Origin: a virus | Lineage: Duplodnaviria; Heunggongvirae; Uroviricota; Caudoviricetes | DNA length: 64,000 bases | IMG/VR virus record: IMGVR_UViG_3300042301_002383 | Span: 3,322 to 67,321 of that record | Strand: one strand, 5' to 3' | Part shown: positions 17,929 through 64,000 of the stretch, one piece after another | How positions within the stretch are numbered: position 1 is the stretch's first letter | Layout: the number at the start of each line of letters is the position of its first letter | The notes under the pieces: generated by a model | The model's input: the letters and a program-made list of their open reading frames with translations, nothing else | The model's database searches: none | What the model was told of the DNA's origin: nothing | Position numbers and translations under genes: made by a program

Positions 17929-17995
17929 AACTTCCGACTTTGTCACGTTTTTACTTCCGAGTTTGGACGTGTTTTACTTCCGACTTTGGCATTTA
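17929..17995. repeat. three tandem 23-bp direct repeats (ACTTCCGAsTTTGkmAyGT) in the 77-bp gap upstream of 17427..17915
   Basis: seen directly: ACTTCCGACTTTGTCACGTTTT / ACTTCCGAGTTTGGACGTGTTTT / ACTTCCGACTTTGGCATTT. Confidence 0.6.
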
Positions 17996-20298: not shown

Positions 20299-20690
20299 TA
20301 CTTAATATTTGAAGTATAGAATGTATTTGTAGATATTGTTCCTGTTGTTGTAAACGCTCCACCAATACCTCCCGTAGTTGTTACCGTTCCGGTTGTATTT
20401 GATGTTGTTAAACTAAACCCTGTTGTTGCGGTATTGATTGTTCCACTAAATGGAATTGTGTAAGTACCAGTACCCGGTGTTGTTGTTATAGTATAATCAG
20501 GTATAGTATAGGTGGATGTTGCGTATTGAACTAACCCTGGATTAACTATCCAAGCTGGGTTGGTGGTTGTTGTGCCCCAATTTATTATTCCAGTTCCTGG
20601 CGTTGGTGGATAAGTTCTAAAAATATCCTCCCATTGTTCTGTTAATGTATTTTGTTTATACCCTCTGAAAAATTTGAATTCGCGTACCAT
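20298..20690 (-). CDS. FKFF-N-terminal family protein 5 (Thr/Gly-rich, fibre-like)
   Basis: 130 aa, starts MVREFKFFRGYK; C-terminal two-thirds low-complexity T/G/P-rich. Confidence 0.55.
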   Translation of the reverse strand: MVREFKFFRGYKQNTLTEQWEDIFRTYPPTPGTGIINWGTTTTNPAWIVNPGLVQYATSTYTIPDYTITTTPGTGTYTIPFSGTINTATTGFSLTTSNTTGTVTTTGGIGGAFTTTGTISTNTFYTSNIK

Positions 20691-22819: not shown

Positions 22820-23145
22820 GGCTCAAATCTCAAAAACCTTATTGTTAGTAAATCGGATGTAATGTCGAATCCCCAACCATCTTCATATTGTGTATTGGCA
22901 TCATGAAATCTTCCGTTTGGTCCTGTTATTGATAATACGGGAACAATAAATCTATTGGGGAATCTATATAAGAATTCGTGTATACCGTCACTTTGAGTTT
23001 CAACAATATCGTATGTGTAATTAGTTAATGGTAATAGACTTGTCCATGACCAAGAAGCACTATCATCGTCCAACGCTTCGATTAAATGTTCTTCAACCTC
23101 ATCTTCATCTTCGTTACCAGAAAAAAATTTAAATGATTTTACCAT
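22816..23145 (-). CDS. FKFF-N-terminal family protein 6 (acidic)
   Basis: 109 aa, starts MVKSFKFFSGNEDEDE. Confidence 0.5.
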   Translation of the reverse strand: MVKSFKFFSGNEDEDEVEEHLIEALDDDSASWSWTSLLPLTNYTYDIVETQSDGIHEFLYRFPNRFIVPVLSITGPNGRFHDANTQYEDGWGFDITSDLLTIRFLRFEP

Positions 23146-30977: not shown

Positions 30978-31517
30978 TTATAAAGATAGGAAAGTTGGGA
31001 GTTCTAGGTCCTTTTCTGAGACTCTTATGAAGTAATCACTTACCCCCCAATCTATGTTCAAGGTTGGGTCATTATAAATAATCCCACCTTCACTTTCCTT
31101 ATTATATGGATTATCAACCTTATATTGAAATATTGCATTATCACTTAACGCTGAGAATCCGTGAGCACATCCCCTTGGTATGAACACTTGTTTGTTTAGT
31201 GTCTGACCTAATTCCACCTCGACAACCTTACCGTAGCTTGGGGAATCCTTTCTAATATCAACAATAACGTCCAATACACGTCCACTGGTACATGTAACAA
31301 GTTTAGCCTGTTCATACTTACCTGTTTGGAAATGAAGTCCTCTAATGGTCCCTAAATGAGAATATGACATATTATCCTGAACGAACTCCACATCATAACC
31401 CACGTTACTATTGAAAACTTCTTTGTTATATGGTACCGCGAAGTATCCCCTACTATCTACAAACGTATCGTAATTTATTATATAACAACCACCAATGTCT
31501 GTTTTGGTAAATTTCAT
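30978..31517 (-). CDS. rmlC: dTDP-4-dehydrorhamnose 3,5-epimerase (RmlC-type cupin)
   Basis: 179 aa; RGYFAV..., VQDNMSYSHLGTIRGLHFQ, KLVTCTSGRVLDVIVDIRKDSPSYGK, IPRGCAHGF align with RmlC/RfbC. Confidence 0.8.
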   Translation of the reverse strand: MKFTKTDIGGCYIINYDTFVDSRGYFAVPYNKEVFNSNVGYDVEFVQDNMSYSHLGTIRGLHFQTGKYEQAKLVTCTSGRVLDVIVDIRKDSPSYGKVVEVELGQTLNKQVFIPRGCAHGFSALSDNAIFQYKVDNPYNKESEGGIIYNDPTLNIDWGVSDYFIRVSEKDLELPTFLSL

Positions 31518-32461
31518 TATTGTATATTCTTAAACATTTGAGGCACTTGACCATATACTGGTAACTTACCATCCCATTTATTAATGTACTCTAATTGTAA
31601 TAACAATGGTGTCAATGTTACTTGTTTCATTCTATTTGATTCAGCCTCAGCTTTTGCTGATGTTAACATTGCTTGGGCGTTACCTTCCGCAGTTGCCACT
31701 TTAATTTTAGCTTGAGCCTCTGCAGTTTTAACCTCATTCTCAGCTCTCAATGCTGCCTGAACCGCGTTGTTCTTAGCCTCAATAGACTTCTTAAACGTCT
31801 CAGGATAAATCAAATTAGATGTGAACTGATTGATAATAAATCCCTCTTTCAATAGTTGTCCATCTAACAATCTACGAACCTCCACCTCAAACACTGCTCT
31901 ATTTGAAATCAACTCATCCGCTGTGTATTTGTTAGTTGCCAATCTGAACGCATCGTACACCGCAGTCTTTAAGAAACCTTCTTCGATGTCCTCCAATGGT
32001 CTACGATACTTACTAAAAATCGAAGGTACTTTATCTCTTTGAACCGAGTAATTCATAATAGGTGACACACTAAACTCAGATCCATCTTTACTATTTACCA
32101 CGAATGAATTTTCTCCTTTATATTCTTTGTGTTGGATGAATGTTGGGAACTCATAAATGGCAGTTGTAAATGGGTTATAGAATACCATACCAGTGACTGC
32201 CACTACATCATCCACACCTTTATTATCTCCATATTGATTTACTTTAACTCCCACATGTCCTGCGTCGATTCTCTCACATGAGAAGAATAAAAAGGTTAAT
32301 GTAAAAAATGTTGCTACCCCAATTAAAATGTTTCTCATAATTTGTTTTTGTTTTATTTTTTGTTCTTGATAAAATTCTGATTCCATTCGGTCTAATTCTT
32401 CATTTGACCTTTGTCTACCATAACTGTCCCATCGGTTATCGTACCTATTAAATGCTTTCAT
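31517..32461 (-). CDS. SPFH/band-7 (prohibitin/HflC-like) membrane protein
   Basis: 314 aa; N-terminal TM helix; coiled-coil A/E/K-rich tail (AEAQAKIKVATAEGNAQAMLTSAKAEAE). Confidence 0.7.
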   Translation of the reverse strand: MKAFNRYDNRWDSYGRQRSNEELDRMESEFYQEQKIKQKQIMRNILIGVATFFTLTFLFFSCERIDAGHVGVKVNQYGDNKGVDDVVAVTGMVFYNPFTTAIYEFPTFIQHKEYKGENSFVVNSKDGSEFSVSPIMNYSVQRDKVPSIFSKYRRPLEDIEEGFLKTAVYDAFRLATNKYTADELISNRAVFEVEVRRLLDGQLLKEGFIINQFTSNLIYPETFKKSIEAKNNAVQAALRAENEVKTAEAQAKIKVATAEGNAQAMLTSAKAEAESNRMKQVTLTPLLLQLEYINKWDGKLPVYGQVPQMFKNIQ

Positions 32462-37717: not shown

Positions 37718-37786
37718 ATAATAGTTTTATATACTAAATATATAAAACTTATTTGATAAATCCAAGAAAATAATGGAATAATCTTA

Positions 37787-41323: not shown

Positions 41324-41737
41324 TTATTTAATTAACCAAGATGATGATTGAATTTTATCCCCTAAACCGTCAATCAATTTTATACCTAACCAATCACATA
41401 CTTGTCTCTCAGGGATAGCATCATTAAGTTGGTCCCCACCATTTGCAAACATTAGTTCGTTTGTTGAATCTTCTAAAGAATGAATGATTCCGATTGTTTG
41501 AGAAACAGTTCTATCCGTATCTACAGATAAGAATACCCTGTCAACCATTTTTAGATTTTGAATGATGAACATTCTCTCGTCTTCATCCTGAAACTCTTTA
41601 CTACCCTTTAACTCTCTCTGCTTGTCATTGTTAACAATGACGTAGAGTTTATCACCAAGTTCTTTGGACTTATTGAAATAATCAATGTGTCCTTTATGAA
41701 GAGGGTTAAAGTATCCACTTACAATCACAATTTTCAT
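41324..41737 (-). CDS. cytidylyl-/adenylyl-transferase (TagD / RfaE domain-II-like)
   Basis: 137 aa; (H/T)xGH motif in IVIVSGYFNPLHKGHIDYF plus ANGGDQ. Confidence 0.7.
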   Translation of the reverse strand: MKIVIVSGYFNPLHKGHIDYFNKSKELGDKLYVIVNNDKQRELKGSKEFQDEDERMFIIQNLKMVDRVFLSVDTDRTVSQTIGIIHSLEDSTNELMFANGGDQLNDAIPERQVCDWLGIKLIDGLGDKIQSSSWLIK

Positions 41738-45957: not shown

Positions 45958-46932
45958 TTAATTTTTATGAGATTTCAAAACTTTTTGTGATTCAATATAA
46001 TTGTCAATAAAGTTTATTCGTTGACCAATCCAATACATCACATTGACTGTCATAGAGTTACCAATTGCACCTTTAACACTTGAATACGATGGTTTCTTAC
46101 CAGCAACTTCAAAGTCTAAATAACCGTCTGGAAATCCTTGGAGTCTCTCCAATTCTCTTTCTGTGAAGGTTCTAATACTATCATTATCAATCCAATAGTT
46201 AGATGTGGATACTTTACCAAATCCATCAACTAATGTTTGTGCATATGATTTGGTTACTGTACCTGCGAGTTTAATTTCTCCAAGAATATTTCTGGCGTAC
46301 TCATCCCTCTTGATTCTATTCTTTTCTTTAACGCTTTCAAAACATCCTTCTTCAAATAATACGGAGAATGGGACTTTCCAATTGTTTCCACGATATCCAA
46401 CAATGAAGATTCTTTTGCGTCGTTGGGGAACTCCGAAGTATTGGCTGTCGAAAACCCGATAAGCGATTGAGTATTCTTCTCCTTGGACAACTCCTTGTTT
46501 GTCGAGGTTTTCGACTTGGAAGTTAGTACCGGTGAAAGAGGAGATGATTTCACACAACGCTCTTCTGTGTTTTTTCTTAAAAACGCCTTCGACATTTTCC
46601 CAAACGAACCATCTTGGTCGTTTGTCTTTAAGAATTTCTCCATACTTAAGGGAGAGTTGACCACGGATATCATCCATTCCTTCGTTGAGTCCTGCATCGG
46701 AAAAAGATTGACAAGGCGTTCCTCCGACCAATACGTCGAAGTTGATGTTTTTGTAGACTGCATAGTCGTTTAGTTTAGTTAAATCTGAAAATAAGGGAAC
46801 GTTGGGGTAGTGATGTGATAAGACTTTTTGTGGGAAAGAGGCGAAGTCACATAAACCTTCACACTCCCAACCTAATGGTGACCAAGCCACGGTTGCGGCC
46901 TCGATTCCACTACATACTGAGAAATATTTCAT
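45958..46932 (-). CDS. DNA (cytosine-5)-methyltransferase (Dcm-like)
   Basis: 324 aa; motif I FSVCSGIEA, motif IV GGTPCQSFSDAG, motif VI FVWENVEG. Confidence 0.8.
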   Translation of the reverse strand: MKYFSVCSGIEAATVAWSPLGWECEGLCDFASFPQKVLSHHYPNVPLFSDLTKLNDYAVYKNINFDVLVGGTPCQSFSDAGLNEGMDDIRGQLSLKYGEILKDKRPRWFVWENVEGVFKKKHRRALCEIISSFTGTNFQVENLDKQGVVQGEEYSIAYRVFDSQYFGVPQRRKRIFIVGYRGNNWKVPFSVLFEEGCFESVKEKNRIKRDEYARNILGEIKLAGTVTKSYAQTLVDGFGKVSTSNYWIDNDSIRTFTERELERLQGFPDGYLDFEVAGKKPSYSSVKGAIGNSMTVNVMYWIGQRINFIDNYIESQKVLKSHKN

Positions 46933-51331: not shown

Positions 51332-52495
51332 CTAGTTCGATAGTTTTGCCTTTATAGATGGATGTGATTCATACCCATCGATTATGAATTGATGGGGTTG
51401 TAAATTGTTTATAAACCCATCAAATGTATCTTTATGGTGTTCAAAGTGTGCCAACACTAAGGGACTAAAATTTAATGTTGGTAAATTTTTAAATGGTTCT
51501 CTACCGATTTGTTCTTTAGCTTGTTCGATGTGATTCGAATACAGATGAACATCACCTAAGTTACCAATTAATTCATCGGGTATCATATTAACTTCCATAG
51601 CTAGAATTTCTAATAACAAACCATATGATGCAATATTAAATGGTAACCCTAAGAATGTATCTACACTTCGTTGATTCCACATTAGAGATATTGCTCGTTT
51701 AGGTATATTATATGATTCTAACTCTTCGCTCAAACCACCACCAAATGGTACAATATCATCTACCATTGATTTAAATCTTTCCTCACCAACTTTCTTTTTT
51801 AATAGCTCCCACATCTCTTCTCCTGTTAACTTTCTAGTGTACACTTGAAATCCATAATGACAAGGTGGTAAGACCATTTCATCCAATTGACCAACATTCC
51901 AAGCGTTTACAAGTAATCGTCTACTATCTGGATTTGTTTTCAACTCATCAATTAAGTTTTGAATTTGATCAATCCATTTATCACCTTCAACGTATGTATC
52001 ATGTCCGGTTAATGGGTCTTTTATTGTTGTCTTAATTAATGTTTTAGTGTGCCACTCTCTCCATTGTGCACCGTAGATTGGTCCTAACTCACCAAAAATA
52101 TTACAAAATCTTTCATCCGTTTTAATTAAACGAATAAAATTTTCTTTATCCCATGGTTCTCCGTTATTAGACCATAATGAATTTCCTACCCAAGCAGCAT
52201 AACTATTCTCATATCTTTTATAAGCATCACCATCCCAAATGTGACAATCATTATCAACAAGGTATTTGATGTTAGTGTCACCACGGAGGAACCATAACAA
52301 TTCAGTTACCATTGTCTTCCATGCCATTTTCTTCGTTGTCAACAATGGAAATCCCTGTGACATTTTATGTCTAATCTGACGACCAAATACCGATATGGTA
52401 CCAGTGCCAGTCCTATCAGTTTTAATAACTCCATTATCTAAAATGTCTTGTAATAATTCTTGATATTTTGAATCCAATCTATTCATACTTACCAT
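51332..52495 (-). CDS. thyA: thymidylate synthase ThyA homologue with two large insertions
   Basis: 387 aa (ThyA is usually ~264-320); DRTGTGT, ELLWFL.GDTN, catalytic PCH, DVFLGLPFNIASY (Asn retained), GDVHLYSNH; about 50-aa insert after DGDAY and about 45-aa insert after PCHYGFQ. Confidence 0.8.
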   Translation of the reverse strand: MVSMNRLDSKYQELLQDILDNGVIKTDRTGTGTISVFGRQIRHKMSQGFPLLTTKKMAWKTMVTELLWFLRGDTNIKYLVDNDCHIWDGDAYKRYENSYAAWVGNSLWSNNGEPWDKENFIRLIKTDERFCNIFGELGPIYGAQWREWHTKTLIKTTIKDPLTGHDTYVEGDKWIDQIQNLIDELKTNPDSRRLLVNAWNVGQLDEMVLPPCHYGFQVYTRKLTGEEMWELLKKKVGEERFKSMVDDIVPFGGGLSEELESYNIPKRAISLMWNQRSVDTFLGLPFNIASYGLLLEILAMEVNMIPDELIGNLGDVHLYSNHIEQAKEQIGREPFKNLPTLNFSPLVLAHFEHHKDTFDGFINNLQPHQFIIDGYESHPSIKAKLSN

Positions 52496-54610: not shown

Positions 54611-54976
54611 ATGTCAGTACACATCAACAACAAAACATTTCAAGCCGAATACCTATCAAATCCAGAAGACATTAGTCGAGGTATGATGGGTAGAAACTCA
54701 TTGGACGGTTGTATGGTATTCAAGATGGGTAAGGGTCATCATTCATTTTGGATGAAGAATTGCCTCATCCCACTTGACATCGTATTTGTTTTAAATAATC
54801 GTATCAATCGTATCCATCCCAATTGTCCCGTTGAAGATTCCCATAGAATGACTCTACCTCGTTACACCGGTATTGGTGACCACGTGATAGAGTTTCCTGC
54901 AGGAACTACAGAGGGTTGGAAAGTAGGGGATCGTGTTGCAATGTATCTAGGGTCTCCTCAGAATCCTGTTCGATAG
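54611..54976 (+). CDS. DUF192-family protein
   Basis: 121 aa; GMMGRNSLDGCMVFKM...FWMKNCLIPLDIVFV matches the DUF192 (COG1430) core; plus-strand gene inside the minus block. Confidence 0.6.
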   Translation: MSVHINNKTFQAEYLSNPEDISRGMMGRNSLDGCMVFKMGKGHHSFWMKNCLIPLDIVFVLNNRINRIHPNCPVEDSHRMTLPRYTGIGDHVIEFPAGTTEGWKVGDRVAMYLGSPQNPVR

Positions 54977-55619
54977 GACTATCATATTTCACTCTTGGTT
55001 TAACCTTCTCAAATACCCAAAAATAACTATGGTACTTACGAGCATGTTCTTGTTTAGTCCATTTAGTCCCAAAACTATTGATACGAACGTTTGATGTTAG
55101 GATAAATAAATCTCTCGGATAGAACCCTAACTCTTGGGCCATATTCATAACCATAACGTGAGAGAAGTGGTTCTTACCTCCAGATACCGTATCTTGACAT
55201 TTAAAGACTACGTAACCACCTTTATCACAAACTCGGTACAATTCCTTCAATGTGTTATAATAATGGGTTTTTAGGTGGTTATATGACTCATAACCCTCGA
55301 ATCTCTTTGCAATAATAGAACTCCCTTCTTTATTATCACGATATGACTTACCAGCAATAACAAATGGAGGATCAAACATTATACTTTTCATTGAACCGTC
55401 CTCAAATGATAAGTTTTCGGAACTACACTCAACCACTGTATCATTATAAGGATACAAATCTGATTTGTTAGTAGGTTCTGGTAAATCTTTCCAAAAAGCA
55501 CCTTTAGAATAGGTACAATCTAAATCAAATCTTTCAATGTTGTAAAGAAACATGATGCTCTTTATAGCCTCGTAGTTAGAGGTGTAGACACTTTTTACGG
55601 GTTTAAAATCTTTTTCCAT
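54906..55619 (-). CDS. DNA amino-methyltransferase (N6-adenine or N4-cytosine; DPPF motif)
   Basis: 237 aa; motif IV SIMFDPPFVIAG; its 3' end overlaps the converging DUF192 gene by about 70 nt. Confidence 0.7.
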   Translation of the reverse strand: MEKDFKPVKSVYTSNYEAIKSIMFLYNIERFDLDCTYSKGAFWKDLPEPTNKSDLYPYNDTVVECSSENLSFEDGSMKSIMFDPPFVIAGKSYRDNKEGSSIIAKRFEGYESYNHLKTHYYNTLKELYRVCDKGGYVVFKCQDTVSGGKNHFSHVMVMNMAQELGFYPRDLFILTSNVRINSFGTKWTKQEHARKYHSYFWVFEKVKPRVKYDSPIEQDSEETLDTLQHDPLLSNPL

Positions 55620-55707: not shown

Positions 55708-55872
55708 ATGGGCTGCGGATGCAAAAAAAACAATTCTAACTCACAACCGGTTCAACCAACGAACATTACATTAACCGAAACAGGAACGCCTGTGGTTACA
55801 CAACCAGCACCGGCACCAACAACTAATCAAACGGAAGTTAATGACATCATTGACCGTTTAAATAATCAATAA
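55708..55872 (+). CDS. 54-aa protein starting MGCGCKK, Thr/Pro/Gln-rich
   Basis: hand-translated ORF with its own terminator (55901-55926); below the ORF-track cutoff. Confidence 0.4.
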   Translation: MGCGCKKNNSNSQPVQPTNITLTETGTPVVTQPAPAPTTNQTEVNDIIDRLNNQ

Positions 55873-55900: not shown

Positions 55901-55926
55901 TATCGTCTTAATTGACGATATTTTTT
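55901..55926 (+). terminator. rho-independent terminator
   Basis: TATCGTC-ttaat-tGACGATA + TTTTTT. Confidence 0.6.
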
Positions 55927-55962
55927 AATCATTTAAGTATATACTAATATATATAAAACAAT

Positions 55963-56160
55963 ATGAAAGCAGATACAAAATTAACTAGTGTTAACATTTT
56001 AGATGATGTTTACAAAAGGTTTAAAATTAAATCGATTGAAGGTTCAATGAATCTACAAAAATTAGTAAATCGTTCTTTAGATTTATATTCTAAAGATGAA
56101 AACTTTAGAAATTTAATAAACAACCACAATGGTTTAGCAACAACAGGGTCTAAATTTTAA
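55963..56160 (+). CDS. small ribbon-helix-helix-like regulator (tentative)
   Basis: 65 aa; predicted beta-strand (TSVNILDD) followed by two short helices; sits directly upstream of the glycosyltransferase operon. Confidence 0.45.
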   Translation: MKADTKLTSVNILDDVYKRFKIKSIEGSMNLQKLVNRSLDLYSKDENFRNLINNHNGLATTGSKF

Positions 56161-56161
56161 T

Positions 56162-57511
56162 ATGAAGAAAAAAATACTTTTATTATCAGATGATTTAAGA
56201 ATGACAAGTGGTATTGCCACTATGTCCAAAGAATTCGTTTTAGGAACCATTCACAAATATGATTGGATTCAATTAGGTGCGGCAATTAAACATCCAGAAC
56301 TTGGTAAGATAGTTGACATCAATGATGATGTTAGAAAAAGAACCGGTATTAAAGATGCCAATTTAAAAATTATACCATATAATGGTTATGGTGATATTGG
56401 TATATTAAGAAAATTAATCGCTGAAGAGAAACCAGATGCAATTTTACATTTCACGGACCCGCACTATTGGCAATGGTTATATGATAACGAACATGAGATT
56501 AGACAACAAGTCCCAATTTTATTTTATCATATTTGGGATAACTTACCTGACCCATATTACAATAGAGATTACTATGAATGTTGTGATTGGTTAGGTTGTA
56601 TCTCTAAACAAACCTATGGTATCGTTCATCGTGTTGGTAAAACCACAAGGGAAGTTACACATAAACCATTGGAAGATTGGCAAATTAGTTACGTTCCTCA
56701 TGGAATCAATCCTGATGTGTTTAAACCAGTTAAGAAAGTGGATGAAGAATTATCTAAACTTATTCATGGTGATAAGAAATATGATTTCATTCTATTCTAT
56801 AACAATAGAAACATTAGAAGAAAACAACCATCTGATGTGATTTATTCATTTAAATTATTCTGTGACAGTTTACCTAAAAAAGAATCTGATAAATGTTTGT
56901 TATTGATGCACACCAATCCCGTGGATGAGAATGGTACAGATTTAAATGCAGTAATTAATGAGTTATGTCCTAACTACGATGTTAAATTTACCAACGCTAA
57001 ATTAGAACAAGACAAATTAAATGATTTATATAACATTGTTGATTGTACAATCAACATTGCAAATAATGAGGGGTTTGGATTAACGACCGCAGAATCATTA
57101 ATGGCAGGTACACCAATTATTGTTAGCGTGACAGGAGGTCTACAAGATCAATGTGGATTTAATTTTAGTGCTGATGATTATATTGAGGTTGGGACGTTGC
57201 ACAAATCTAAAGGGACACCACATGGTGATTGGGTTATACCTGTTTGGGCCGCAGCAACTAATTTAAATGGATCGGTACCAACACCTTATATCTTTGATGA
57301 TAGGGTTAATGACGATGATGTTGCAGATGCAATTATGACAGTATATAAATGGGGACGTAAAGAAAGAAAAGAAAGAGGAAAGAAAGGTAGAGAATTTATG
57401 AAGAAGAACTTATCTTCTAAAGTAATGTCAGATACTTTTATTGAGGGAATAGAAAAAACATTAAATAACTTTAAACCGAGAAAAAGATTCGATTTATATA
57501 AGATAGTATAA
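56162..57511 (+). CDS. GT4-family (GT-B) glycosyltransferase
   Basis: 449 aa; C-terminal NEGFGLTTAESLMAGTPIIVSVTGG (E-x7-E region). Confidence 0.8.
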   Translation: MKKKILLLSDDLRMTSGIATMSKEFVLGTIHKYDWIQLGAAIKHPELGKIVDINDDVRKRTGIKDANLKIIPYNGYGDIGILRKLIAEEKPDAILHFTDPHYWQWLYDNEHEIRQQVPILFYHIWDNLPDPYYNRDYYECCDWLGCISKQTYGIVHRVGKTTREVTHKPLEDWQISYVPHGINPDVFKPVKKVDEELSKLIHGDKKYDFILFYNNRNIRRKQPSDVIYSFKLFCDSLPKKESDKCLLLMHTNPVDENGTDLNAVINELCPNYDVKFTNAKLEQDKLNDLYNIVDCTINIANNEGFGLTTAESLMAGTPIIVSVTGGLQDQCGFNFSADDYIEVGTLHKSKGTPHGDWVIPVWAAATNLNGSVPTPYIFDDRVNDDDVADAIMTVYKWGRKERKERGKKGREFMKKNLSSKVMSDTFIEGIEKTLNNFKPRKRFDLYKIV

Positions 57512-57512
57512 T

Positions 57513-58763
57513 ATGAGCAAACCAAGTTTATTATTTAGAGGGCCGGTAAAAACAAGAAGTGGGTACGGCGCACACTCAAGAGATTTATTACAAGCACTGT
57601 ATGAAATGAATCTATTCGATATTAATGTTGATAGTTGTATGTGGGGATCAACTCCATTAACGGCATTAGAAGAAGAAAATACATTTCACAAATGGATTGA
57701 AAGCGTAATTGTAACAAGAATAGAACATAGACCAGACATCTATGTTCAAGTTACAGTACCAAATGAATTTCAAACATTAGGTAAATTCAACGTAGGGATA
57801 ACTGCTGGAATTGAAACTACCGTTGCACCTAAAGAATGGATTGATGGGTGCAATAAAATGGATTTAATTGTTACAACATCCACATTTTCGAAAGATGTAT
57901 TGTTATCTACCGTTTACAATGAAACGGAAAACAACACGGGTAAATTAATTAAACAACATAAGATTGAAAAACCAATTAAGGTTTTGTTTGAAGGTGTTGA
58001 TTTGTCAATTTACAATAACGAGTACAAAGGTTTAGATATTGATATTAAAGAGGAGTTCGCATTTCTTTTCGTTGGTCATTGGTTAAAAGGTAATCTTGGT
58101 CAAGATAGAAAAGACATCGGTATGTTAATTAAATGTTTTAGTAAATCATTTGAGGACGTTGAAAATCCACCGGCTTTAGTTCTTAAAACATCTTCAGCAA
58201 CATTTTCAGTTAAGGAAAGAGAATCTTTCAGAAAACGTATTAGTGATTTAGTTAAAGACATTAAAAATCCACCTCCAATTTATTTGTTGTTTGGTGAATT
58301 AACTAACGATGAAATGAATCAATTATATAATCATCCAAAGATTAAAGCAATGATATCATTAACTAAAGGTGAAGGGTTTGGTAGACCTCTATTAGAATTC
58401 ACTATGTCAGGTAAACCTGTGATAGCATCTAATTGGTCAGGTCATAAAGATTTCTTACCTATGGATAAGGCAATCATGGTCGGTGGGTCATTAACTGAAG
58501 TTGATAATAGTGCGGTTGATACGTTTATTATTAAAGGTTCTAAGTGGTTTACCGCAAATTATAATGAGGCTTCGGAGGTGATGAAATTAGTGCATGAAGA
58601 TTATAATAAATTCTTAGAAAAATCAGAAACTTTAAGGATTGAAAATAAAGAAAAGTTTTCGTTAGATAAAATGAGAGAAACATTTAAAGATATGTTTCAA
58701 TTATTCCAAACTAAACCACAGGAACAAAAATTAGTTCTACCTAAATTAACAAAAACTAAATAA
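57513..58763 (+). CDS. GT-B fold glycosyltransferase (GT4-like)
   Basis: 416 aa; GEGFGRPLLEFTMSGKPVIAS; 1-nt spacing from previous gene. Confidence 0.7.
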   Translation: MSKPSLLFRGPVKTRSGYGAHSRDLLQALYEMNLFDINVDSCMWGSTPLTALEEENTFHKWIESVIVTRIEHRPDIYVQVTVPNEFQTLGKFNVGITAGIETTVAPKEWIDGCNKMDLIVTTSTFSKDVLLSTVYNETENNTGKLIKQHKIEKPIKVLFEGVDLSIYNNEYKGLDIDIKEEFAFLFVGHWLKGNLGQDRKDIGMLIKCFSKSFEDVENPPALVLKTSSATFSVKERESFRKRISDLVKDIKNPPPIYLLFGELTNDEMNQLYNHPKIKAMISLTKGEGFGRPLLEFTMSGKPVIASNWSGHKDFLPMDKAIMVGGSLTEVDNSAVDTFIIKGSKWFTANYNEASEVMKLVHEDYNKFLEKSETLRIENKEKFSLDKMRETFKDMFQLFQTKPQEQKLVLPKLTKTK

Positions 58764-58764
58764 T

Positions 58765-59040
58765 ATGGCAAGAGGTAGAAAAAAAATAAAGGATGAATTA
58801 TTACAATCTGTTATTGATAAATTAACAATCGACGACACACCAAAAATTGAAACATACATGCCATGTGAATGGGTGATTCAATTTGATAATGATGAACCAC
58901 AATTATTTACAACCGCAGATGAAACTGTAGAATCACCAGAAGTTATTATTAGAATACAAAATACTAACGAAGGTTATATTAAGTTTACAGACCCAACATC
59001 GGGTAAAACATTTAAATTATTTGCAAGACCAAAAAAATAG
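58765..59040 (+). CDS. hypothetical protein, tandem paralogue of 59043..59288
   Basis: 91 aa; C-terminal GKTFKLFARPKK vs NKVFKLFAREIQ, and VIQFDNDEPQLFT vs FCFQFGDEEPIVFAT. Confidence 0.5.
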   Translation: MARGRKKIKDELLQSVIDKLTIDDTPKIETYMPCEWVIQFDNDEPQLFTTADETVESPEVIIRIQNTNEGYIKFTDPTSGKTFKLFARPKK

Positions 59041-59042
59041 TA

Positions 59043-59288
59043 ATGAACTTTAAATTTTTTCAAAAGGAGGAATTAAAACATAATAATTTTATTGTGTTAG
59101 AACCTACAAGATTTAATCCACAAAATGTTGAGTTTTGTTTTCAATTTGGTGATGAGGAACCAATTGTATTTGCAACTGGTCCTAATGAATGTAGTATTCA
59201 TTTAAGTCCAACAACCAACACCAACATGACGTTCAATGATAATAATAAAGTTTTTAAATTATTCGCAAGAGAAATACAAAATGGTTAA
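59043..59288 (+). CDS. FKFF-N-terminal family protein 7
   Basis: 81 aa; starts MNFKFFQKEELK. Confidence 0.5.
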   Translation: MNFKFFQKEELKHNNFIVLEPTRFNPQNVEFCFQFGDEEPIVFATGPNECSIHLSPTTNTNMTFNDNNKVFKLFAREIQNG

Positions 59289-59523
59289 AAATTTTAAATT
59301 TTTTCATGGGGTAATTAGGAGTAGTTTAACTGCGACATGGACTCATCAAGAGGGAGAGTTGTTTGGTATCGACGCAGAAGAAGAATTAACAAGATTGATG
59401 TCTAATGAAATTGCTAGAGAAATTGACAATAACATTATTGAGGAATTAACAAGAAGAATTAATGGTGGGAATCCATCGATATTTGGGGGTCCGATTATCG
59501 GTTTTAACAATAATGTAGCATGA
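59281..59523 (+). CDS. FKFF-N-terminal family protein 8
   Basis: ATG at ~59281 (MVKNFKFFHGVIRS...) inside track ORF 59236..59523, overlapping the previous stop (ATGGTTAA); EELTRRINGG matches 19816..20298. Confidence 0.5.
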   Translation: MVKNFKFFHGVIRSSLTATWTHQEGELFGIDAEEELTRLMSNEIAREIDNNIIEELTRRINGGNPSIFGGPIIGFNNNVA

Positions 59524-59610
59524 GATGTGAAAGACATAATTGGGACACGGAAGATAGGGAGTGGTGTTGGAAATGTGAAGAATTAACATTAAAAGAAAAT
59601 AAACAAAAAT

Positions 59611-60234
59611 ATGAAGATAAGTTTCGCCATAACAGTTTGCAACGAGTTGGAGGAAATCAAGAGATTAGTTCCGTTCTTATTGAAACACAAAAGGTCTCAG
59701 GACGAGATTGTGATTCTATATGATGACAAGAATGGTAACAAAGAAATATTAGATTTCTTATTACCATACAATAAATTACCTAACGTTCAAACATGGAGAG
59801 GTTTTGATTGGAATAACAATTTCGCAGATTGGAAAAATACTTTAAACGAATATTGTGCTGGTGATTACATTTACCAAATTGATGCTGATGAAATGATTAG
59901 TGAATATATGGTTAAAAATTTGCACGATATATTAGGAATGAATCCTGATGTGGATTTAATATTTGTCCCAAGAATAAACACTGTTGAGGGTTTAACCGAT
60001 AATCATATTAGAAAATGGGGGTGGCATGTAAACGATAAGGGGTGGGTTAACTTTCCGGATGCTCAGGGAAGAATTTACAAAAAGGGAATGACTTGGTATG
60101 GTCGTGTACATGAAAGAATAATTGGCGGTCAAAAATTCGCATCGTTACCAACAGATGACGATGATTATTTTATTCAACACCATAAAACAATAGAACGTCA
60201 AGAAAAACAAAATAATTTTTATCAATCAATTTAA
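59611..60234 (+). CDS. GT2-like glycosyltransferase
   Basis: 207 aa; ISFAITVCNE N-terminus and IYQIDADE (DxD). Confidence 0.6.
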   Translation: MKISFAITVCNELEEIKRLVPFLLKHKRSQDEIVILYDDKNGNKEILDFLLPYNKLPNVQTWRGFDWNNNFADWKNTLNEYCAGDYIYQIDADEMISEYMVKNLHDILGMNPDVDLIFVPRINTVEGLTDNHIRKWGWHVNDKGWVNFPDAQGRIYKKGMTWYGRVHERIIGGQKFASLPTDDDDYFIQHHKTIERQEKQNNFYQSI

Positions 60235-60242
60235 GATATTAT

Positions 60243-60824
60243 ATGAGTAAAATAGAATTTATTATACCAACATACAATAGACCACACCATTTGATGTGTC
60301 TTCTTAATTCACTTTGTGCACAAAGAAGTGACAAGTGGTGTGCACATGTTATTGCCGATTGTCCTCCTGAAGGTTCATTGGATAAAGTTATGGATTATTT
60401 TAAGGATAATGAAAAGATAAAATTTACAATTTTACCTGAACGTTATAATGATTGGGGTCACACCCCTAGAAATTATGGTGTAGAACATTCAACGGAAGAT
60501 TGGATTGTTATGACAGGTGAAGATAATTACTATGTTCCAGTATTCGTTGATACTTTTTTATCTGTTGTTAGTGAAAAAGTGGGATTTGTATTTTGTAATA
60601 TGGTTCATAATTGGAAAAATTTTGAGTATATTGGTATAGATTGTGAACCTTCGTGGGGTAAAATCGATATTGGAAATTTTATGATTAAAAGAAAATTTGC
60701 TAAACAAATGAGATTAAATCCGTCAATTGAACAAGCAGATGGGGTTTATGTTGAAGAATTTAAGGTAAAATTTCCTTATATACAAATAATTAAAATACAT
60801 AAAGTATTATATATACACAATTAA
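60243..60824 (+). CDS. GT2 glycosyltransferase
   Basis: 193 aa; IEFIIPTYNRPHHL, MTGEDNYY. Confidence 0.65.
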   Translation: MSKIEFIIPTYNRPHHLMCLLNSLCAQRSDKWCAHVIADCPPEGSLDKVMDYFKDNEKIKFTILPERYNDWGHTPRNYGVEHSTEDWIVMTGEDNYYVPVFVDTFLSVVSEKVGFVFCNMVHNWKNFEYIGIDCEPSWGKIDIGNFMIKRKFAKQMRLNPSIEQADGVYVEEFKVKFPYIQIIKIHKVLYIHN

Positions 60825-60825
60825 T

Positions 60826-61443
60826 ATGCACGCTACAGCAGAACAAAACGCAAGAAGATTTTTTAACACTTATGTTAATAATAAAAACGGTAATTTTTTA
60901 GAAATAGGATCATATCTAAGTAGTTTTAACATACGGTCATTAGCACCGAATGGTTCTAACTATGTGGGTGTTGATTTAGGTGCCGGCCCCGGTGTTGATA
61001 TTGTTTTAACTGACCCATATGTTTTGCCATTTGGTGATAATTCATTTGACTTTGTTGTTAGTTCATCTTGTTTTGAACATAGTGAATTTTTTTGGTTAAC
61101 ATATATGGAAGTTATGAGAGTATTGAAACCTTCTGGACTGTTTTATTTAAACGCTCCATCAAATGGTGATTTTCATAGATTTCCAGTCGATTGTTGGAGA
61201 TTCTTTCCTGATAGTGGTAATGCATTATCTAATTGGTCAAGACGTAATGGAATGAATACTGCAGTACTTGAACAATATACAAGTGGTGGGGGTACCGACA
61301 TATGGTGCGATTACGTGTCAATATTTATAAAAGATATAGATATGATTAACAATTACCCAAATAGAATAATAACAAATTTTAATGATTATACAAATGGTTC
61401 GGTATTTCCACACGAAACATTATTAAATAAGAAATTATGGTAG
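60826..61443 (+). CDS. class I SAM-dependent methyltransferase
   Basis: 205 aa; FLEIGSY...VGVDLGAGPGVD glycine-rich motif I; FDFVVSSSCFEH. Confidence 0.6.
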   Translation: MHATAEQNARRFFNTYVNNKNGNFLEIGSYLSSFNIRSLAPNGSNYVGVDLGAGPGVDIVLTDPYVLPFGDNSFDFVVSSSCFEHSEFFWLTYMEVMRVLKPSGLFYLNAPSNGDFHRFPVDCWRFFPDSGNALSNWSRRNGMNTAVLEQYTSGGGTDIWCDYVSIFIKDIDMINNYPNRIITNFNDYTNGSVFPHETLLNKKLW

Positions 61444-61985
61444 ATAGATTATATACAATGCGTGATGAAACATACGCAAAAGGTTTGGAGGATTTAATTC
61501 AATATGTTAAACAACATGGAGATACTAAAAAAATGACTATGATTGAGATTGGTTCATATGCTGGAGAATCTACACAAATGTTCTCTAATGAATTTGAGAC
61601 AGTTATTTCAATTGACCCCTACATTAATGATTATGACCCAAATGATATAACTTGTAGTTATATGAAATTAGAAAAAGTTTATGATACATTTAAAGAGGTA
61701 GTTGACCGAAATAATAATATCAAACATATCAGAATGACGTCTGATGATGCAATAGAATCATTAATAGGTATGTCGGTTGATTTTATTTATATTGATGGAT
61801 TACATACCTATGAACAAATAAAAAAAGATATAACGAATTATCTTCCTTTACTTAAACCTAACTGTTTAATTGGTGGTCATGATTACCACGTAAACTGGGG
61901 TGGTGTAGTAAAAGGTGTTAATGAATTGTTAGGTGAACCAGACACAACGTTCTCTGACACTAGTTGGATTAAACTTATAAAATAA
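61437..61985 (+). CDS. class I SAM-dependent O-methyltransferase (Methyltransf_24 / TylF-MycF-like sugar O-MTase)
   Basis: 182 aa; MIEIGSYAGEST ... IYIDGLHTYEQIKKDI ... GGHDY. Confidence 0.65.
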   Translation: MVDRLYTMRDETYAKGLEDLIQYVKQHGDTKKMTMIEIGSYAGESTQMFSNEFETVISIDPYINDYDPNDITCSYMKLEKVYDTFKEVVDRNNNIKHIRMTSDDAIESLIGMSVDFIYIDGLHTYEQIKKDITNYLPLLKPNCLIGGHDYHVNWGGVVKGVNELLGEPDTTFSDTSWIKLIK

Positions 61986-61986
61986 T

Positions 61987-62529
61987 ATGTTTTTAAATAT
62001 AATAACTCCCTGTAGTCGACCTAAAAATCTACTAGAAATTTCTAAAAGTATAAACATACCGAGAGAAAACTATCGATGGATTGTTGTTTTTGATATGGAT
62101 GCATTACCACCATCCGAATTAATACCTTTAAATTGTGAAACACATCTACATCGTAACAAATTAAGTATTGCGGGGCATTCACAAAGAAATTATGCCTTAA
62201 GTTTAATAAATGATGGACACATCTATTCTAATGATGATGATACAATTATACACCCAAATTTATGGGATAATATAAAAGACTTGGATGATGATTTCATATC
62301 ATTTGAACAAGAGGATAAAAATCATAATTTAAGATTAAAGGGAAATGTAATAAGATTATATAATATCGATAGTCATAATTTTATAGTTAAAAGGTCAATA
62401 ATAGGTGAGACTTCTTTTATAGTAGGTGATTATAATGCCGATGGTTATTTTGCTGAAGAATGTTATTCTAAATCATCATCAACCATTTTTATACCCAAAG
62501 TTCTCTCAACATATAATTCATTAAGATGA
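61987..62529 (+). CDS. hypothetical protein (possible glycosyltransferase-like)
   Basis: 180 aa; IITPCSRPKNL N-terminus and NDDD acidic motif; weak. Confidence 0.45.
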   Translation: MFLNIITPCSRPKNLLEISKSINIPRENYRWIVVFDMDALPPSELIPLNCETHLHRNKLSIAGHSQRNYALSLINDGHIYSNDDDTIIHPNLWDNIKDLDDDFISFEQEDKNHNLRLKGNVIRLYNIDSHNFIVKRSIIGETSFIVGDYNADGYFAEECYSKSSSTIFIPKVLSTYNSLR

Positions 62530-63632
62530 ACATAACATTTGTAATGGCAGTGTATAATAAGCTAGAGTTAACAAAAGAATGTTATCGTTACTTACGCGAC
62601 TTATATCCCGAAGCCCCATTAGTAATTAGTAGCGGTGGTTCAAGTGATGGTACAAAGGAATGGTTGGAATCATTAGAAGATGATGACTACCTATCTTATC
62701 TTCACGATGATGATAGATTAACATTCTCTGACACATACAATGCTGGTATTAAATTAGTCGATACTGAAAAATTAGTATTGATACATAACGATATGGTTAT
62801 TGGTGAAGGATTCTTAGAGGCAATCGAAAGATTATTAACACCTAATATGTTGTTATCATATACAACAATTGAACCCCCAATATTCAAAGGTCATAAAAGA
62901 CCGGGTAAAGTATTGCTAGAATTAGGTTCGTCATTTTTAAATTTTGATAACTATCACTTCAACAACTACGTTAAACAATGGAAGGATAGTGATAACCTAT
63001 ATGATGGTGCAGTATTCTTCATGAGTGGATATAAAAAAATGTTTGAAGATGTTGGTGGATTTGACGGGTTTAGTTTTGTTCCGTGTTTCTGTGAGGATGA
63101 TGATTTCTTAATTCGTGCGAAACTAAAAGGGTATGAATTAAAAACTTGTGATTCAGCAATAACTTATCATTTTGTTTCGCAGACATCCAGATTTAGTGAT
63201 GAAATGAAGACCGATAGATTTAGAATAGAAATTTGTTCAAACAGAAACTTTGTAAGAAAGTGGGGTATATCAATTGCTTCATTCAACGAATTAAGATATT
63301 GGGAAGATAAAGATTTTAAATATAAAACGTTTTCAATGGGTTTAACAACTCGTAACAAATCAAGATTGGGTGAAGTGGAACCATACTTCGATAAAATCGA
63401 TTTAGGGGAGATTCCTGAGGACTACATAGAGAATGAACAAAAGAATACACGTTATGATTTAAGGTCGAAATTTACCCTACAGGACACCGTTGATGTGATG
63501 GTATACGAGATGAATCCATTCACGGATGAAGACATGTATATATTGAATAAAATAAGATTATCGTTACCATATTATGAGCCGGACGAATACGAGGTTGGAA
63601 ATATGAAGATAGTTATTAAAAAAATTATTTAA
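62526..63632 (+). CDS. GT2 glycosyltransferase with C-terminal extension
   Basis: 368 aa; ITFVMAVYNK, LIHNDMVI. Confidence 0.7.
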   Translation: MNITFVMAVYNKLELTKECYRYLRDLYPEAPLVISSGGSSDGTKEWLESLEDDDYLSYLHDDDRLTFSDTYNAGIKLVDTEKLVLIHNDMVIGEGFLEAIERLLTPNMLLSYTTIEPPIFKGHKRPGKVLLELGSSFLNFDNYHFNNYVKQWKDSDNLYDGAVFFMSGYKKMFEDVGGFDGFSFVPCFCEDDDFLIRAKLKGYELKTCDSAITYHFVSQTSRFSDEMKTDRFRIEICSNRNFVRKWGISIASFNELRYWEDKDFKYKTFSMGLTTRNKSRLGEVEPYFDKIDLGEIPEDYIENEQKNTRYDLRSKFTLQDTVDVMVYEMNPFTDEDMYILNKIRLSLPYYEPDEYEVGNMKIVIKKII

Positions 63633-64000
63633 TGAATGTACTTGTAACTGGAGGTGCTGGATTTGTCGGTACCAATTTAATTAAAAGGTTATTAAAAGAT
63701 GGTCACGATGTAACATCCTTAGATAACTACTTAAGTGGTTTTAGTTCTAACCACCAAGATGGAGCAAATTACATATATGGTGATGTTAGAAATTTAACAA
63801 TACTAGATAATCTGAAATACGATATTGTATTTCATTTAGCGGCAATTGCAAGAATACAACCATCATTTAAACATCCGGTTGAGTATTTTGAAACAAATAC
63901 AAATGGTACATTGAATATGGTACAATATTGTATTAAGAACGATATACCATTAGTTTATGCAGGAAGTAGTTCACACCATAGCGGTAAGTTTAAAAATCCA
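63632..64000 (+). CDS. NAD-dependent sugar epimerase/dehydratase (SDR), 3'-truncated by window edge
   Basis: VLVTGGAGFVGTNL Rossmann motif; ATG at ~63632 overlapping the previous stop; runs past the window end. Confidence 0.75.
   Translation, partial: MNVLVTGGAGFVGTNLIKRLLKDGHDVTSLDNYLSGFSSNHQDGANYIYGDVRNLTILDNLKYDIVFHLAAIARIQPSFKHPVEYFETNTNGTLNMVQYCIKNDIPLVYAGSSSHHSGKFKNP

Follow-up and report, generated by a model that had tools for sequence, protein, structure and literature searches.

Virions that carry glycans made by their own enzymes are established for the chloroviruses, the mimiviruses and a few mycobacteriophages. To our knowledge, the same has not been established for the tailed phages that abound in lakes and oceans. 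The present analysis concerns a stretch of 64,000 nucleotides, hereafter the window, from a virus of the class Caudoviricetes (positions 3,322 to 67,321 of IMG/VR record IMGVR_UViG_3300042301_002383), and more particularly the operon of predicted glycosyltransferases (GTs) and sugar-modifying enzymes found at positions 55,963 to 64,000. Judged from sequence comparison, this operon is a glycan locus made of a conserved core and a variable cassette, carried by freshwater and marine phages of a very abundant group. Its enzymes may act in the cytoplasm of the infected cell on a protein made by the phage.

In the chloroviruses, glycosylation is autonomous (PMC9614988). The enzymes, such as A064R and A061L of PBCV-1 and B736L of NY-2A, are soluble GTs of the GT-A and GT-B folds and sugar methyltransferases, as are those predicted here. 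Their product is a methylated glycan, variable between strains around a conserved core, and neither the endoplasmic reticulum nor the Golgi takes part in its synthesis. The chlorovirus genes are scattered and the host is a eukaryote, whereas the genes of the window form one operon. Glycans are also carried by the capsid and tail tube of some mycobacteriophages (Che8, Corndog and others; Freeman et al. 2023), as related in PMC12619734. The mycobacteriophage operons likewise encode soluble GTs, sometimes with methyltransferases, that modify structural proteins in the cytoplasm. They comprise two to four GTs with a proven target, the C-termini of the capsid and tail-tube subunits, whereas the operon of the window has six GTs and an inferred target.

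A phage-borne glycan island as such is already known. Large GT islands are published for the aquatic myophages P-SSM2, S-SCSM1 and S-SCSM2R with 13 GTs (PMC12801897), and the core genes of the 'moraphages', freshwater phages associated with Bacteroidota, include four GT orthogroups (PMC12619734). The features in common with the window are lytic aquatic myophages, many GTs, nucleotide-sugar epimerases and RmlC. As far as their available text goes, these reports list genes and describe no locus with a conserved core and exchangeable cassettes; the pair of GT4 enzymes, the capsid-fragment gene and the swapping of cassettes at the population level come from the analysis of the window. Bacterial O-antigen, capsule and flagellin loci also have conserved flanks, a hypervariable middle of lower GC content and cassettes exchanged by recombination, and they draw on the same families (DegT, hexapeptide acyltransferase, Glf, short-chain dehydrogenase/reductases (SDRs), methyltransferases, GT2 and GT4). 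Unlike them, the locus is phage-borne, its core enzymes belong to none of the curated bacterial families, and it lacks Wzx/Wzy/Wzm-Wzt, a priming phosphoglycosyl transferase, a ligase and a flagellin transferase of the Maf/PseE type. The searchable literature appears to contain no description of three features: the conserved frame GT4a-GT4b-...-GT2a / GT2c with cassettes exchanged across the population, a capsid-fragment gene as a fixed member of the core, and the position of the locus beside collagen-like fibres rich in Ser and Thr.

Conserved core and variable cassettes

The operon comprises 13 solid open reading frames (ORFs) on the plus strand and one doubtful ORF, g06b (Table 1). It encodes two GT4 enzymes (g02 or GT4a, g03 or GT4b), four GT-A enzymes (g07 or GT2a, g08 or GT2b, g11, g12 or GT2c), two methyltransferases, one SDR and four small proteins (g01 and g04 to g06). 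A preliminary description made from the letters alone had recognized a phage-borne glycan operon, which is indeed intact, and missed its division into a conserved core and a swappable middle cassette. That division emerged when all plus-strand ORFs of the loci were clustered, and it is shared by about 60 related loci: 44 from IMG/VR, 17 from metagenome-assembled genomes (MAGs) of GTDB, and those of two cultured phages, Flavobacterium phage immuto and Microcystis phage Mel-JY01.

In the 44 IMG/VR loci, GT4a is 45–83% identical to that of the window, and the 10 kb upstream are syntenic with the window at 44–56 kb, with up to 99% protein identity. The 5′ core g01-GT4a-GT4b-(g04)-g05-g06-GT2a is conserved. 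On the 3′ side, GT2c is conserved in many loci and is followed, or elsewhere accompanied, by an SDR. The order GT4a, GT4b, small proteins, GT2a is kept across the IMG/VR, MAG, immuto and Mel-JY01 loci. The middle consists of one of at least seven unrelated sugar-modification cassettes (Table 1), and it differs even between relatives with flanks of 90–99% protein identity. In marine and other MAG loci, the same succession of GT4a, GT4b, small proteins and GT2a is followed by yet other cassettes, a Zn-ribbon protein and its partner replacing g04 to g06. This Zn-ribbon protein (family F39) and its partner are also present in immuto. GT4b directly follows GT4a in most loci, with at least one ORF between them in L041-L044 and L056/L065. 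In Mel-JY01 (L002:11995-13486) and L041-L044, GT4a is split into two ORFs of about 190 and 305 residues at the boundary between the Rossmann domains of the GT-B fold.

The closest relative, L008, has a different cassette. Its flanks, g01 and g04 to g06 are 92–98% identical to the window in nucleotide sequence, against 67–85% for GT4a and GT4b. The synonymous divergence (dS) amounts to 0.19–0.29 for g01 and g04 to g06 and to 1.05–1.10 for GT4a, GT4b and GT2a, a contrast that indicates exchange in blocks. L016 is more distant (about 72–75% nucleotide identity) and has the cassette of the window, with protein identities of 91% for g09 and 86% for g10 and only 76% for GT4a. The alleles of GT4a do not track the cassette: identity to the window is 71–78% in loci with the same cassette and 74–79% in those with cassette B.

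The core is shared with immuto and Mel-JY01, where a GT4, a second GT4, a GT2, sugar-modifying genes and a GT2 are found in the same order; otherwise, only about ten ORFs of the window match the 160-kb immuto genome. Weaker matches were found in an uncultured 484-kb phage, in Rhodothermus phage RM378 and in S-CBS4, and a megablast search of the island against 50,697 phage records gave no match. GT4a is the most widely conserved gene of the locus. Its family comprises at least 8000 clusters at 90% identity in public metagenomes, on contigs of up to 351 kb, so that the product of the locus would be made on a very large scale. The best explanation of this architecture is a hypervariable 'glycotype' locus of a phage lineage.

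Predicted enzymes

GT4a and GT4b match the Pfam family Glycos_transf_1 with 38.1 and 28.2 bits (cutoff 26.4). The EX7E motif is invariant in alignments of 12 sequences (E303...E311 in g02, E287...E295 in g03), and both proteins are predicted to be retaining GT4 enzymes of the GT-B fold. The best solved relative of g02 is B736L of chlorovirus NY-2A (profile E=2.5e-14; next match 2.9e-8), the similarity being confined to about 130 residues of the donor-binding domain. With g03, the profile matches in the PDB are WbaZ-1 (5.6e-5) and then B736L (1.7e-4).

The three enzymes g07, g08 and g12 exceed the Pfam cutoff for Glycos_transf_2 and carry invariant DxDE, EDN and NDM/EDDD motifs; these acidic motifs of the GT-A fold are kept across 11–28 homologues, the DxDE of g07 in all 28 sequences. 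They are predicted to be GT2-type enzymes of the GT-A fold, to which g11 is assigned by its profile-profile match to g08 alone. The comparison of the g11 family (four members) with that of g08 using hhalign gave a probability of 95.7% and E=1e-8 over 170 columns, and GHSQRN and NDDD motifs are invariant in g11, which is thus predicted to be the sixth GT of the operon and a GT-A paralogue of g08. The five GTs of two folds previously counted therefore become six, the two folds (GT-B and GT-A) being retained. GT2a is 49% identical to gp92 of immuto. GT2b is present in 13 loci and also occurs with some other types of cassette. GT2c, found in 18 loci and in immuto, has a C-terminal domain of about 140 residues without assigned function.

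Both S-adenosylmethionine-dependent methyltransferases announced in the preliminary description were recovered by Pfam. The first, g09, was seen only in L004, L016 and L017, with 70–91% amino acid identity. The counterpart of g10 in cassette B also matches the rhamnosyl O-methyltransferase/CmcI family. The SDR g13 is 64% identical to gp100 of immuto, and in NCBIfam it scores about 100 bits with each of LegB, GalE and dTDP-glucose dehydratase, all below the cutoffs. No enzyme of the cluster attains any curated cutoff of NCBIfam, and PHROGs gave no function for g01, g04, g05 and g11.

The doubtful ORF g06b covers the beginning of g07. The public gene call on contig L050 retains it and shortens g07 to 174 residues, whereby the Pfam match is lost. 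The gene calls of L071 and L073 do not include a comparable ORF. The g07 of 207 residues opens with a canonical GT2 first strand and is matched by Pfam from residue 4; its start at 59611 was therefore preferred, and g06b was treated as doubtful.

Boundaries of the operon and promoter

Neighbouring genes overlap or sit at most 8 bases apart, except g06 and g07, which are separated by 87 bases. The co-orientation of at least 11 genes, previously noted, thus extends to all 13 solid ORFs; the gene list then given was right as far as it went, and lacked the small genes g04 to g06. Two public contigs, L050 and L051, picked up because they encode the exact g12 protein, match the window without any difference (100% identity) along 9.1 and 3.6 kb, and allowed the operon to be completed beyond 64000, as had been suggested. 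The terminal gene had been seen to run off the window. It does belong to the epimerase/dehydratase family; the operon ends soon after, g13 having a full length of 281 residues with its stop at window-equivalent position 64477. It is the last plus-strand gene, those downstream being all convergent on the minus strand.

Upstream of g01, a hairpin followed by a run of T is kept in relatives. Terminator-like, it would close an upstream small ORF and insulate the operon. This 54-residue ORF (55708-55872, plus strand), separated from the operon by the hairpin, begins with MGCGCKK and continues with a Thr/Pro/Gln-rich stretch; ORFs of similar size with likewise Pro/Thr/Gln-rich C-termini lie upstream of the operon in relatives. 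The element TATATAC-N6-TATATAAAA that follows is kept in about 15 relatives despite differing flanks. It resembles the consensus of T4 late promoters, TATAAATA, and may function as a promoter. The stretch from 55,938 to window-equivalent 64,477 would then be one transcription unit, placed after a terminator and driven by its own phage-type promoter.

A TATAWAAA box is found 8–17 nt upstream of several start codons of the window (Table 1) and is a candidate phage-specific promoter of the T4 late type; the longer form with two boxes occurs in the window only at g01 and at 37728-37744. A scan for sigma-70 promoters returned 53 sites, against 58.8 expected, and was thus uninformative.

Table 1. 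Position and description of the features of the window and of related loci (positions without prefix refer to the window)
Feature	Position or loci	Strand	Description
g01	55963-56160	+	65 residues, small protein, possibly of the ribbon-helix-helix (RHH) type
g02 (GT4a)	56162-57511	+	Pfam Glycos_transf_1
g03 (GT4b)	57513-58763	+	Pfam Glycos_transf_1
g04	58765-59040	+	91 residues, small protein
g05	59043-59288	+	81 residues, small protein
g06	59281-59523	+	80 residues, 'mini-capsid' protein
g06b (doubtful)	59520-59723	+	67 residues; covers the first 113 nt of g07
g07 (GT2a)	59611-60234	+	207 residues; Pfam Glycos_transf_2
g08 (GT2b)	60243-60824	+	Pfam Glycos_transf_2, E=8.5e-12
g09	60826-61443	+	Class I S-adenosylmethionine methyltransferase; Pfam Methyltransf_11, E=3.7e-11
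g10	61437-61985	+	Pfam Methyltransf_24 (sugar-O-methyltransferase type), E=4e-17
g11	61987-62529	+	GT-A fold by profile-profile match; no Pfam match
g12 (GT2c)	62526-63632	+	Pfam Glycos_transf_2
g13	63632->64000	+	Extended SDR; Pfam Epimerase, 92 bits on 123 visible residues
Terminator-like hairpin	55901..55926	+	TATCGTC-TTAATT-GACGATA then TTTTTT; sequence reading and scan
Promoter-like double TATATA box	55938..55958	+	TATATAC-N6-TATATAAAA; ends about 5 bases 5′ of the g01 ATG
TATAWAAA boxes (examples)	10001, 13603, 17929, 20710, 28680, 30940, 37733, 55950	+, -, -, -, -, -, -, +	
Collagen-like ORF	L051:8571-11279 (window-equivalent ~69009-71717)	-	>902 residues; 66 triplets, 59% Ser+Thr
Collagen-like GSS/GTS ORFs	L023:12118-14790, L024:18047-20719, L025:17772-19808		Directly convergent with GT2c; 99-110 triplets
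FKFF-tagged ORFs	17993-18214, 18201-18650, 18837-19331, 19598-19822, 19816-20298, 20298-20690, 22816-23145	-	
RmlC	30978-31517	-	dTDP-4-dehydrorhamnose 3,5-epimerase; Pfam 213 bits; NCBIfam equivalog 202.6 bits, cutoff 155.75
Seventh GT (GT2), outside the operon	16004-16765	-	Pfam
Calcineurin-like phosphoesterase	16698-17381		Generic, Metallophos; separate ORF beside the GT2
Cytidylyltransferase-like protein	41324-41737		
Thymidylate synthase homologue	51332-52495	-	387 residues; insertion of about 120 residues relative to the Pfam model
Two DNA methyltransferases and DUF192 protein	54906-55619, 45958-46932, 54611-54976	-, -, +	
Cassette A	Window, L016/L017; also L004, L025		GT2b, Methyltransf_11 and Methyltransf_24 enzymes, GT-A g11
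Cassette B	L008, L011-14, L018, L020, L022, L031		Methyltransf_24 enzyme (CmcI-like), DegT aminotransferase, methyltransferase, hexapeptide acyltransferase, PhyH dioxygenase, FabH-like enzyme, SDR, GT2
Cassette C	L003, L023/L024, L046, L030		Includes UDP-galactopyranose mutase
Cassette D	L005, L035		FAD oxidoreductase, xylose-isomerase-like barrel
Cassette E	L015, L038		GT2_5 enzyme, Fringe-like GT
Further cassette	L071/L072		Methyltransf_24 enzyme and two GDP-mannose-dehydratase-like SDRs
Further cassette	L073/L074		Aminotransferase, acyltransferase, acyl carrier protein, adenylating enzyme, SDR, Methyltransf_24-GT2 fusion

Intactness and phage ancestry

Pairwise ratios of nonsynonymous to synonymous divergence (dN/dS), calculated with two relatives, range from 0.05 to 0.35 for every gene, and all genes of the operon are under purifying selection. 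In relative synonymous codon usage, the correlation between the island and the rest of the window is r=0.978; for contiguous control blocks of equal size, the mean r is 0.959 (range 0.883–0.989). The GC content at third codon positions (GC3) is 0.22 in the island and 0.29 ± 0.06 elsewhere, about one standard deviation lower, mainly through the cassette genes (0.16–0.20, against 0.29–0.30 in the core). One genome per species was scanned in GTDB (185,579 bacterial and archaeal species). It yielded 17 relatives of GT4a, each of them on a MAG contig whose gene content is phage-like; no isolate genome had one. The preliminary description had named two findings that would speak against a phage glycan island, namely pseudogenised GTs and a recent insertion derived from the host with its codon use. 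Neither was encountered: the ORFs are intact and their EX7E and acidic motifs invariant, the codon usage is that of the window, and the core is present in other phages. From these comparisons, the locus looks functional, ancient in phages and very widespread.

Small proteins and the FKFF tag

Heading the operon, g01 is present in 37 of the 44 IMG/VR loci and in immuto. It had been described as an RHH-like regulator. Its score with Pfam RHH_10 is below the cutoff (16.9 bits for a cutoff of 27, E=0.0076), the family is matched by two of eight homologues, and the PDB profile search gave nothing significant, with CopG at E=1.1. The AlphaFold2 (AF2) model, of low confidence (mean per-residue score pLDDT 64), has an extended N-terminus followed by helices, a topology compatible with RHH. 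The protein is a possible ribbon-helix-helix DNA binder and at most a candidate regulator.

The protein g05, present in most freshwater relatives (dN/dS 0.17), has an N-terminal tag, M-N-FKFF, and a C-terminal FKLFARE motif. Its paralogue g04, found in some relatives only and 100% identical in L008, lacks the FKFF N-terminus; both carry EWxIQFDNDEP...FKLFAR motifs. Neither Pfam nor PHROGs gave a match for g04.

The protein g06 consists of an FKFF tag, a strand and spine-helix segment of the major capsid protein of the gp23 type, and an RRINGG motif. It matches Pfam Gp23 with 24.7 bits, over positions 167-196 only, and the PHROG major head protein with E=7.5e-5. It is 38% identical to residues 304-350 of the major capsid protein of immuto, the identity being visibly higher for other members of the family. 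The family comprises at least 118 clusters, all of 77–140 residues, and every member with context examined, down to 47% identity, lies between GT4b or g05 and GT2a. An exact copy of g06 is also found on a 131-kb contig. A complete capsid protein of the HK97 fold would have about 450–550 residues; g06 is thus predicted to be a capsid-derived fragment. In the AF2 model (pLDDT 63–64, low confidence), it forms a single long helix, residues 32-62, with disordered ends, as would be expected of a segment that folds on a partner. When the capsid protein of the phage of the window was sought with the major capsid protein of immuto as query, the family proved so large that none of the 120 matches listed was attributable to the contig of the window.

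The N-terminal tag M-x(1-3)-FKFF, with FKLL in one case, is common to nine small ORFs of the window: g05, g06 and seven on the minus strand between 17,993 and 23,145. In the six-frame translation of the window, 8 of 12 FKFF tetrapeptides are at the N-terminus of an ORF. Their codons differ, so that the tag is conserved at the peptide level. No FKFF-tagged ORF has a Pfam match, and the tag was not found in the whole immuto genome nor in the marine relatives. The ORF at 19816-20298 also bears the TRRINGG motif of g06. The protein encoded at 20298-20690 (minus strand) is extremely rich in Thr and contains a module, PFSGTINTATTGFSLTTSNTTGT, very similar to PLTGTINTTNGFTLTTTNTGT, which is inserted in the L022 homologue of g06 (L022:12848-13201). 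This Thr-rich module is a possible O-glycan acceptor module. The array of FKFF ORFs adjoins the GT2 gene at 16004-16765.

Acceptor of the glycan

The preliminary description had proposed three roles without ranking them: a methylated, rhamnose-type glycan on virion proteins, as in chloroviruses; the remodelling of host surface polysaccharide; and the glycosylation of DNA. The gene content, the operon structure, the core and cassette architecture, the purifying selection, the lack of membrane and export components and the phage ancestry are established. As to the target, several independent, individually weak observations lean to a phage protein, in the manner of the chloroviruses, host-surface remodelling coming second. 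Cytoplasmic glycosylation of a phage-made protein, probably on the virion, is given a probability of about 0.45. The core enzymes would start the glycan on a conserved acceptor and then finish the chain, whereas the exchangeable middle cassette would set the outer sugars, here with GT2b, two methyltransferases and the GT-A enzyme g11. The product would be a methylated, short hetero-oligosaccharide of up to about six residues, made in the cytoplasm of the infected cell from host nucleotide sugars, some of them altered by g13, and built directly on a phage-made protein, most likely exposed on the virion. Candidate acceptors would be the neighbouring Ser/Thr-rich collagen-like fibre and the capsid, where g06 may dock. 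The combination of a core with swappable cassettes points to diversifying selection, which would bear on a surface-exposed glycan. Such a glycan could affect adsorption, host range, stickiness of the particle, or recognition by defences or grazers. Since the core is present in two cultured phages, immuto and Mel-JY01, the question of the acceptor is directly testable.

The link to the virion is drawn from the capsid fragment g06 fixed in the core, the adjoining fibre genes and the chlorovirus relative of GT4a. The likeness of the element before g01 to T4 late promoters is counted with the weak observations that favour a phage protein. A convergent, fibre-like block abuts the end of the operon, with a Gly-rich protein of 547 residues, two Laminin_G_3 proteins and a collagen-like protein. 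The Laminin_G_3 proteins, d272 and d231, match the 'structural protein' genes 219/220 of immuto and phrog_8510, 'virion structural protein'. The collagen-like ORF of L051 lies 4.5 kb downstream of the operon, and its triplets are mostly GSS (29) and GTS (22). Similar ORFs are present in L023, L024 and L025 (Table 1); across the four contigs, the proportion of Ser and Thr is 59–66%. In Bacillus anthracis, the collagen-like region of BclA, an exosporium glycoprotein with repeats rich in hydroxy-amino acids, bears short rhamnose chains capped by a 2-O-methyl, N-acylated 4-amino-4,6-dideoxyhexose (PMC6222408). A GSS/GTS collagen-like fibre gene beside GTs, methyltransferases and, in sister cassettes, aminotransferase and acyl chemistry recalls this arrangement by analogy only. 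No such fibre is encoded by immuto.

A more specific form of the proposal, held more tentatively, is that of a 'serotype' locus: an abundant group of aquatic T4-like phages would cover their particles with an oligosaccharide that is methylated or acylated, varies between strains and is made by phage enzymes only. It would be attached to collagen-like fibres rich in Ser and Thr, to the capsid or to both, and g06 and the other FKFF proteins would serve as adaptors or carriers. Swapping of cassettes would then change the coat, for instance to escape defences or grazers that recognize glycans; alternatively, the coat could engage the glycan-binding outer-membrane uptake systems of Bacteroidota hosts.

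Several points weigh against glycosylation of a phage protein. The glycoprotein acceptor is reached wholly by inference. Although immuto has the core, it has no collagen-like ORF, g06 or FKFF protein, and consequently an acceptor common to all these phages can be neither the fibre nor the mini-capsid. The genes around the cluster in immuto and Mel-JY01 are those of replication, chaperones and lysis and not structural ones. The acceptor of B736L may be other than the capsid protein (PMC9614988). Conservation in GT4a is slightly higher in the N-terminal, acceptor domain than in the C-terminal domain, a difference too small to be used as a hint of a conserved acceptor. The promoter element resembles T4 late promoters at the level of the consensus only. 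Finally, the GTs of O-antigen synthesis are likewise soluble or peripheral, so that the lack of membrane proteins in the locus still allows for a carrier, a priming enzyme and a flippase provided by the host.

This last point leads to the remodelling of the host envelope, considered unlikely and yet the nearest rival. The phage enzymes would act, on the cytoplasmic side of the membrane, on an intermediate linked to undecaprenyl phosphate, which the host would prime, flip and ligate into its O-antigen, its capsule or the general O-glycan of Bacteroidota, and the aim would be, for example, to block superinfection or to prevent the progeny from adsorbing to debris. The cassettes do resemble O-antigen and capsule loci in their aminotransferase, acyltransferase, Glf, methyltransferases and SDRs, and their GC3 is below that of the core; moreover, bacterial O-unit GTs also have no transmembrane segment. 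This is the usual reading of the islands of the cyanomyoviruses P-SSM2, S-SCSM1 and S-SCSM2R, given without tests (PMC12801897). However, no priming phosphoglycosyl transferase, flippase, polymerase, ligase or ATP-binding cassette (ABC) exporter was found in the approximately 60 loci. The same core GTs serve phages of Bacteroidota and of Cyanobacteria, the envelopes of which are very different, and they have no close relative in isolate bacterial genomes or in curated bacterial families. Six new linkages would need to be tolerated by the flippases and ligases of the host, and this proposal has to accommodate a capsid-derived gene within the locus and adjoining fibre genes.

Membrane segments were sought with the crude criterion of a Kyte-Doolittle mean of at least 1.6 over 19 residues. 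No protein of the window cluster has such a hydrophobic segment, and within the clusters of the approximately 60 loci no protein has two or more. Apparent exceptions downstream of GT2c in L023-L025 were discarded as wrong-strand ORFs over a repetitive minus-strand gene. The locus is thus unlike polysaccharide clusters that depend on Wzx/Wzy or an ABC transporter; host enzymes could take the place of the missing components. A Gtr cassette of a temperate phage consists of GtrA, a small transmembrane flippase, GtrB, a bactoprenol glucosyltransferase, and a serotype-specific polytopic GT. The operon is larger, has other gene content and encodes no transmembrane protein, and no integrase was found among the window ORFs scanned, in keeping with the earlier remark that this machinery goes far beyond a lysogenic-conversion cassette.

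Glycosylation of some other soluble acceptor is improbable. Candidates would be host proteins modified during takeover, a small molecule, a nucleotide, or an oligosaccharide left free or secreted, with g04 to g06 as carriers or specificity factors and not as parts of the virion. The entirely soluble enzyme set would suit such an acceptor, as would the small non-enzymatic proteins within the core of every lineage (FKFF proteins, or Zn-ribbon F39 and its partner) and a weak match of GT4a (27.7 bits) to PF20706, the family of 'GT4 in conflict systems'. No result suggests any specific acceptor of this kind, and the hypervariability of the cassette among near-identical phages fits an exposed surface better.

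Analysis of immuto DNA by liquid chromatography with ultraviolet and tandem mass spectrometric detection found dA, dC and dT canonical and dG fully replaced by 7-(formylamino)methyl-7-deazaguanine (fdPreQ1), and no glycosylated nucleoside was reported (PMC10516641). Hypermodification of DNA, in which the GTs would decorate modified bases of the genome as a protection from restriction, is very improbable: phage GTs are classically DNA-modifying and the window does encode a thymidylate synthase homologue with a large insertion and two DNA methyltransferases, but immuto has the syntenic core and the same ThyA-like gene without the corresponding nucleoside, no Pfam match was obtained to the α- and β-glucosyltransferase families of T4, which, with the indirect evidence from immuto DNA, also sets the operon apart from the hydroxymethyl-pyrimidine pathway and the glucosyl- and arabinosyltransferases of the T-even type, and six GTs with sugar O-methyltransferases and acyl-carrier cassettes far exceed known DNA glycans.

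Other genes of the window

RmlC, whose identification in the preliminary description is confirmed by the NCBIfam equivalog, is isolated, 25 kb from the operon and on the opposite strand. Its link to the glycan of the operon is possible. RmlA, RmlB and RmlD were not found among the larger ORFs scanned in the 64 kb of genome that are visible, and g13 scores 26 bits with RmlD and 93 bits with RmlB, both far below the cutoffs. The four enzymes of the RmlABCD pathway to dTDP-L-rhamnose are therefore not all recognized, and the rhamnose-type glycan formerly suggested finds no support in the visible genes beyond RmlC. A gene for an SPFH/Band-7 protein (31517-32461, minus strand) lies directly upstream of RmlC with an overlap of one base. 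The GT2 and the LpxH-like phosphoesterase previously described together at 16004-17381 are both present, as two separate ORFs, the phosphoesterase having nothing specific to LpxH. The nucleotidyltransferase noted at 41324 is confirmed as cytidylyltransferase-like.

The thymidylate synthase homologue is 60% identical to that of immuto in protein and 81% in nucleotide sequence, the sole near match of the window at the DNA level in the phage collection. It is probably an ordinary ThyA; a role as a hydroxymethylase for modified pyrimidines was rejected, as immuto has the gene and its dT and dC are canonical. Two DNA methyltransferases (N6_N4_Mtase; phrog_116) and a DUF192 protein are encoded just upstream of the operon and have 89–97% amino acid identity in relatives. 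No tRNA gene was found in the window. About two thirds of its large ORFs have no PHROG or Pfam match, and DUF932, GP88, PcfJ-like and T5orf172 domains are present.

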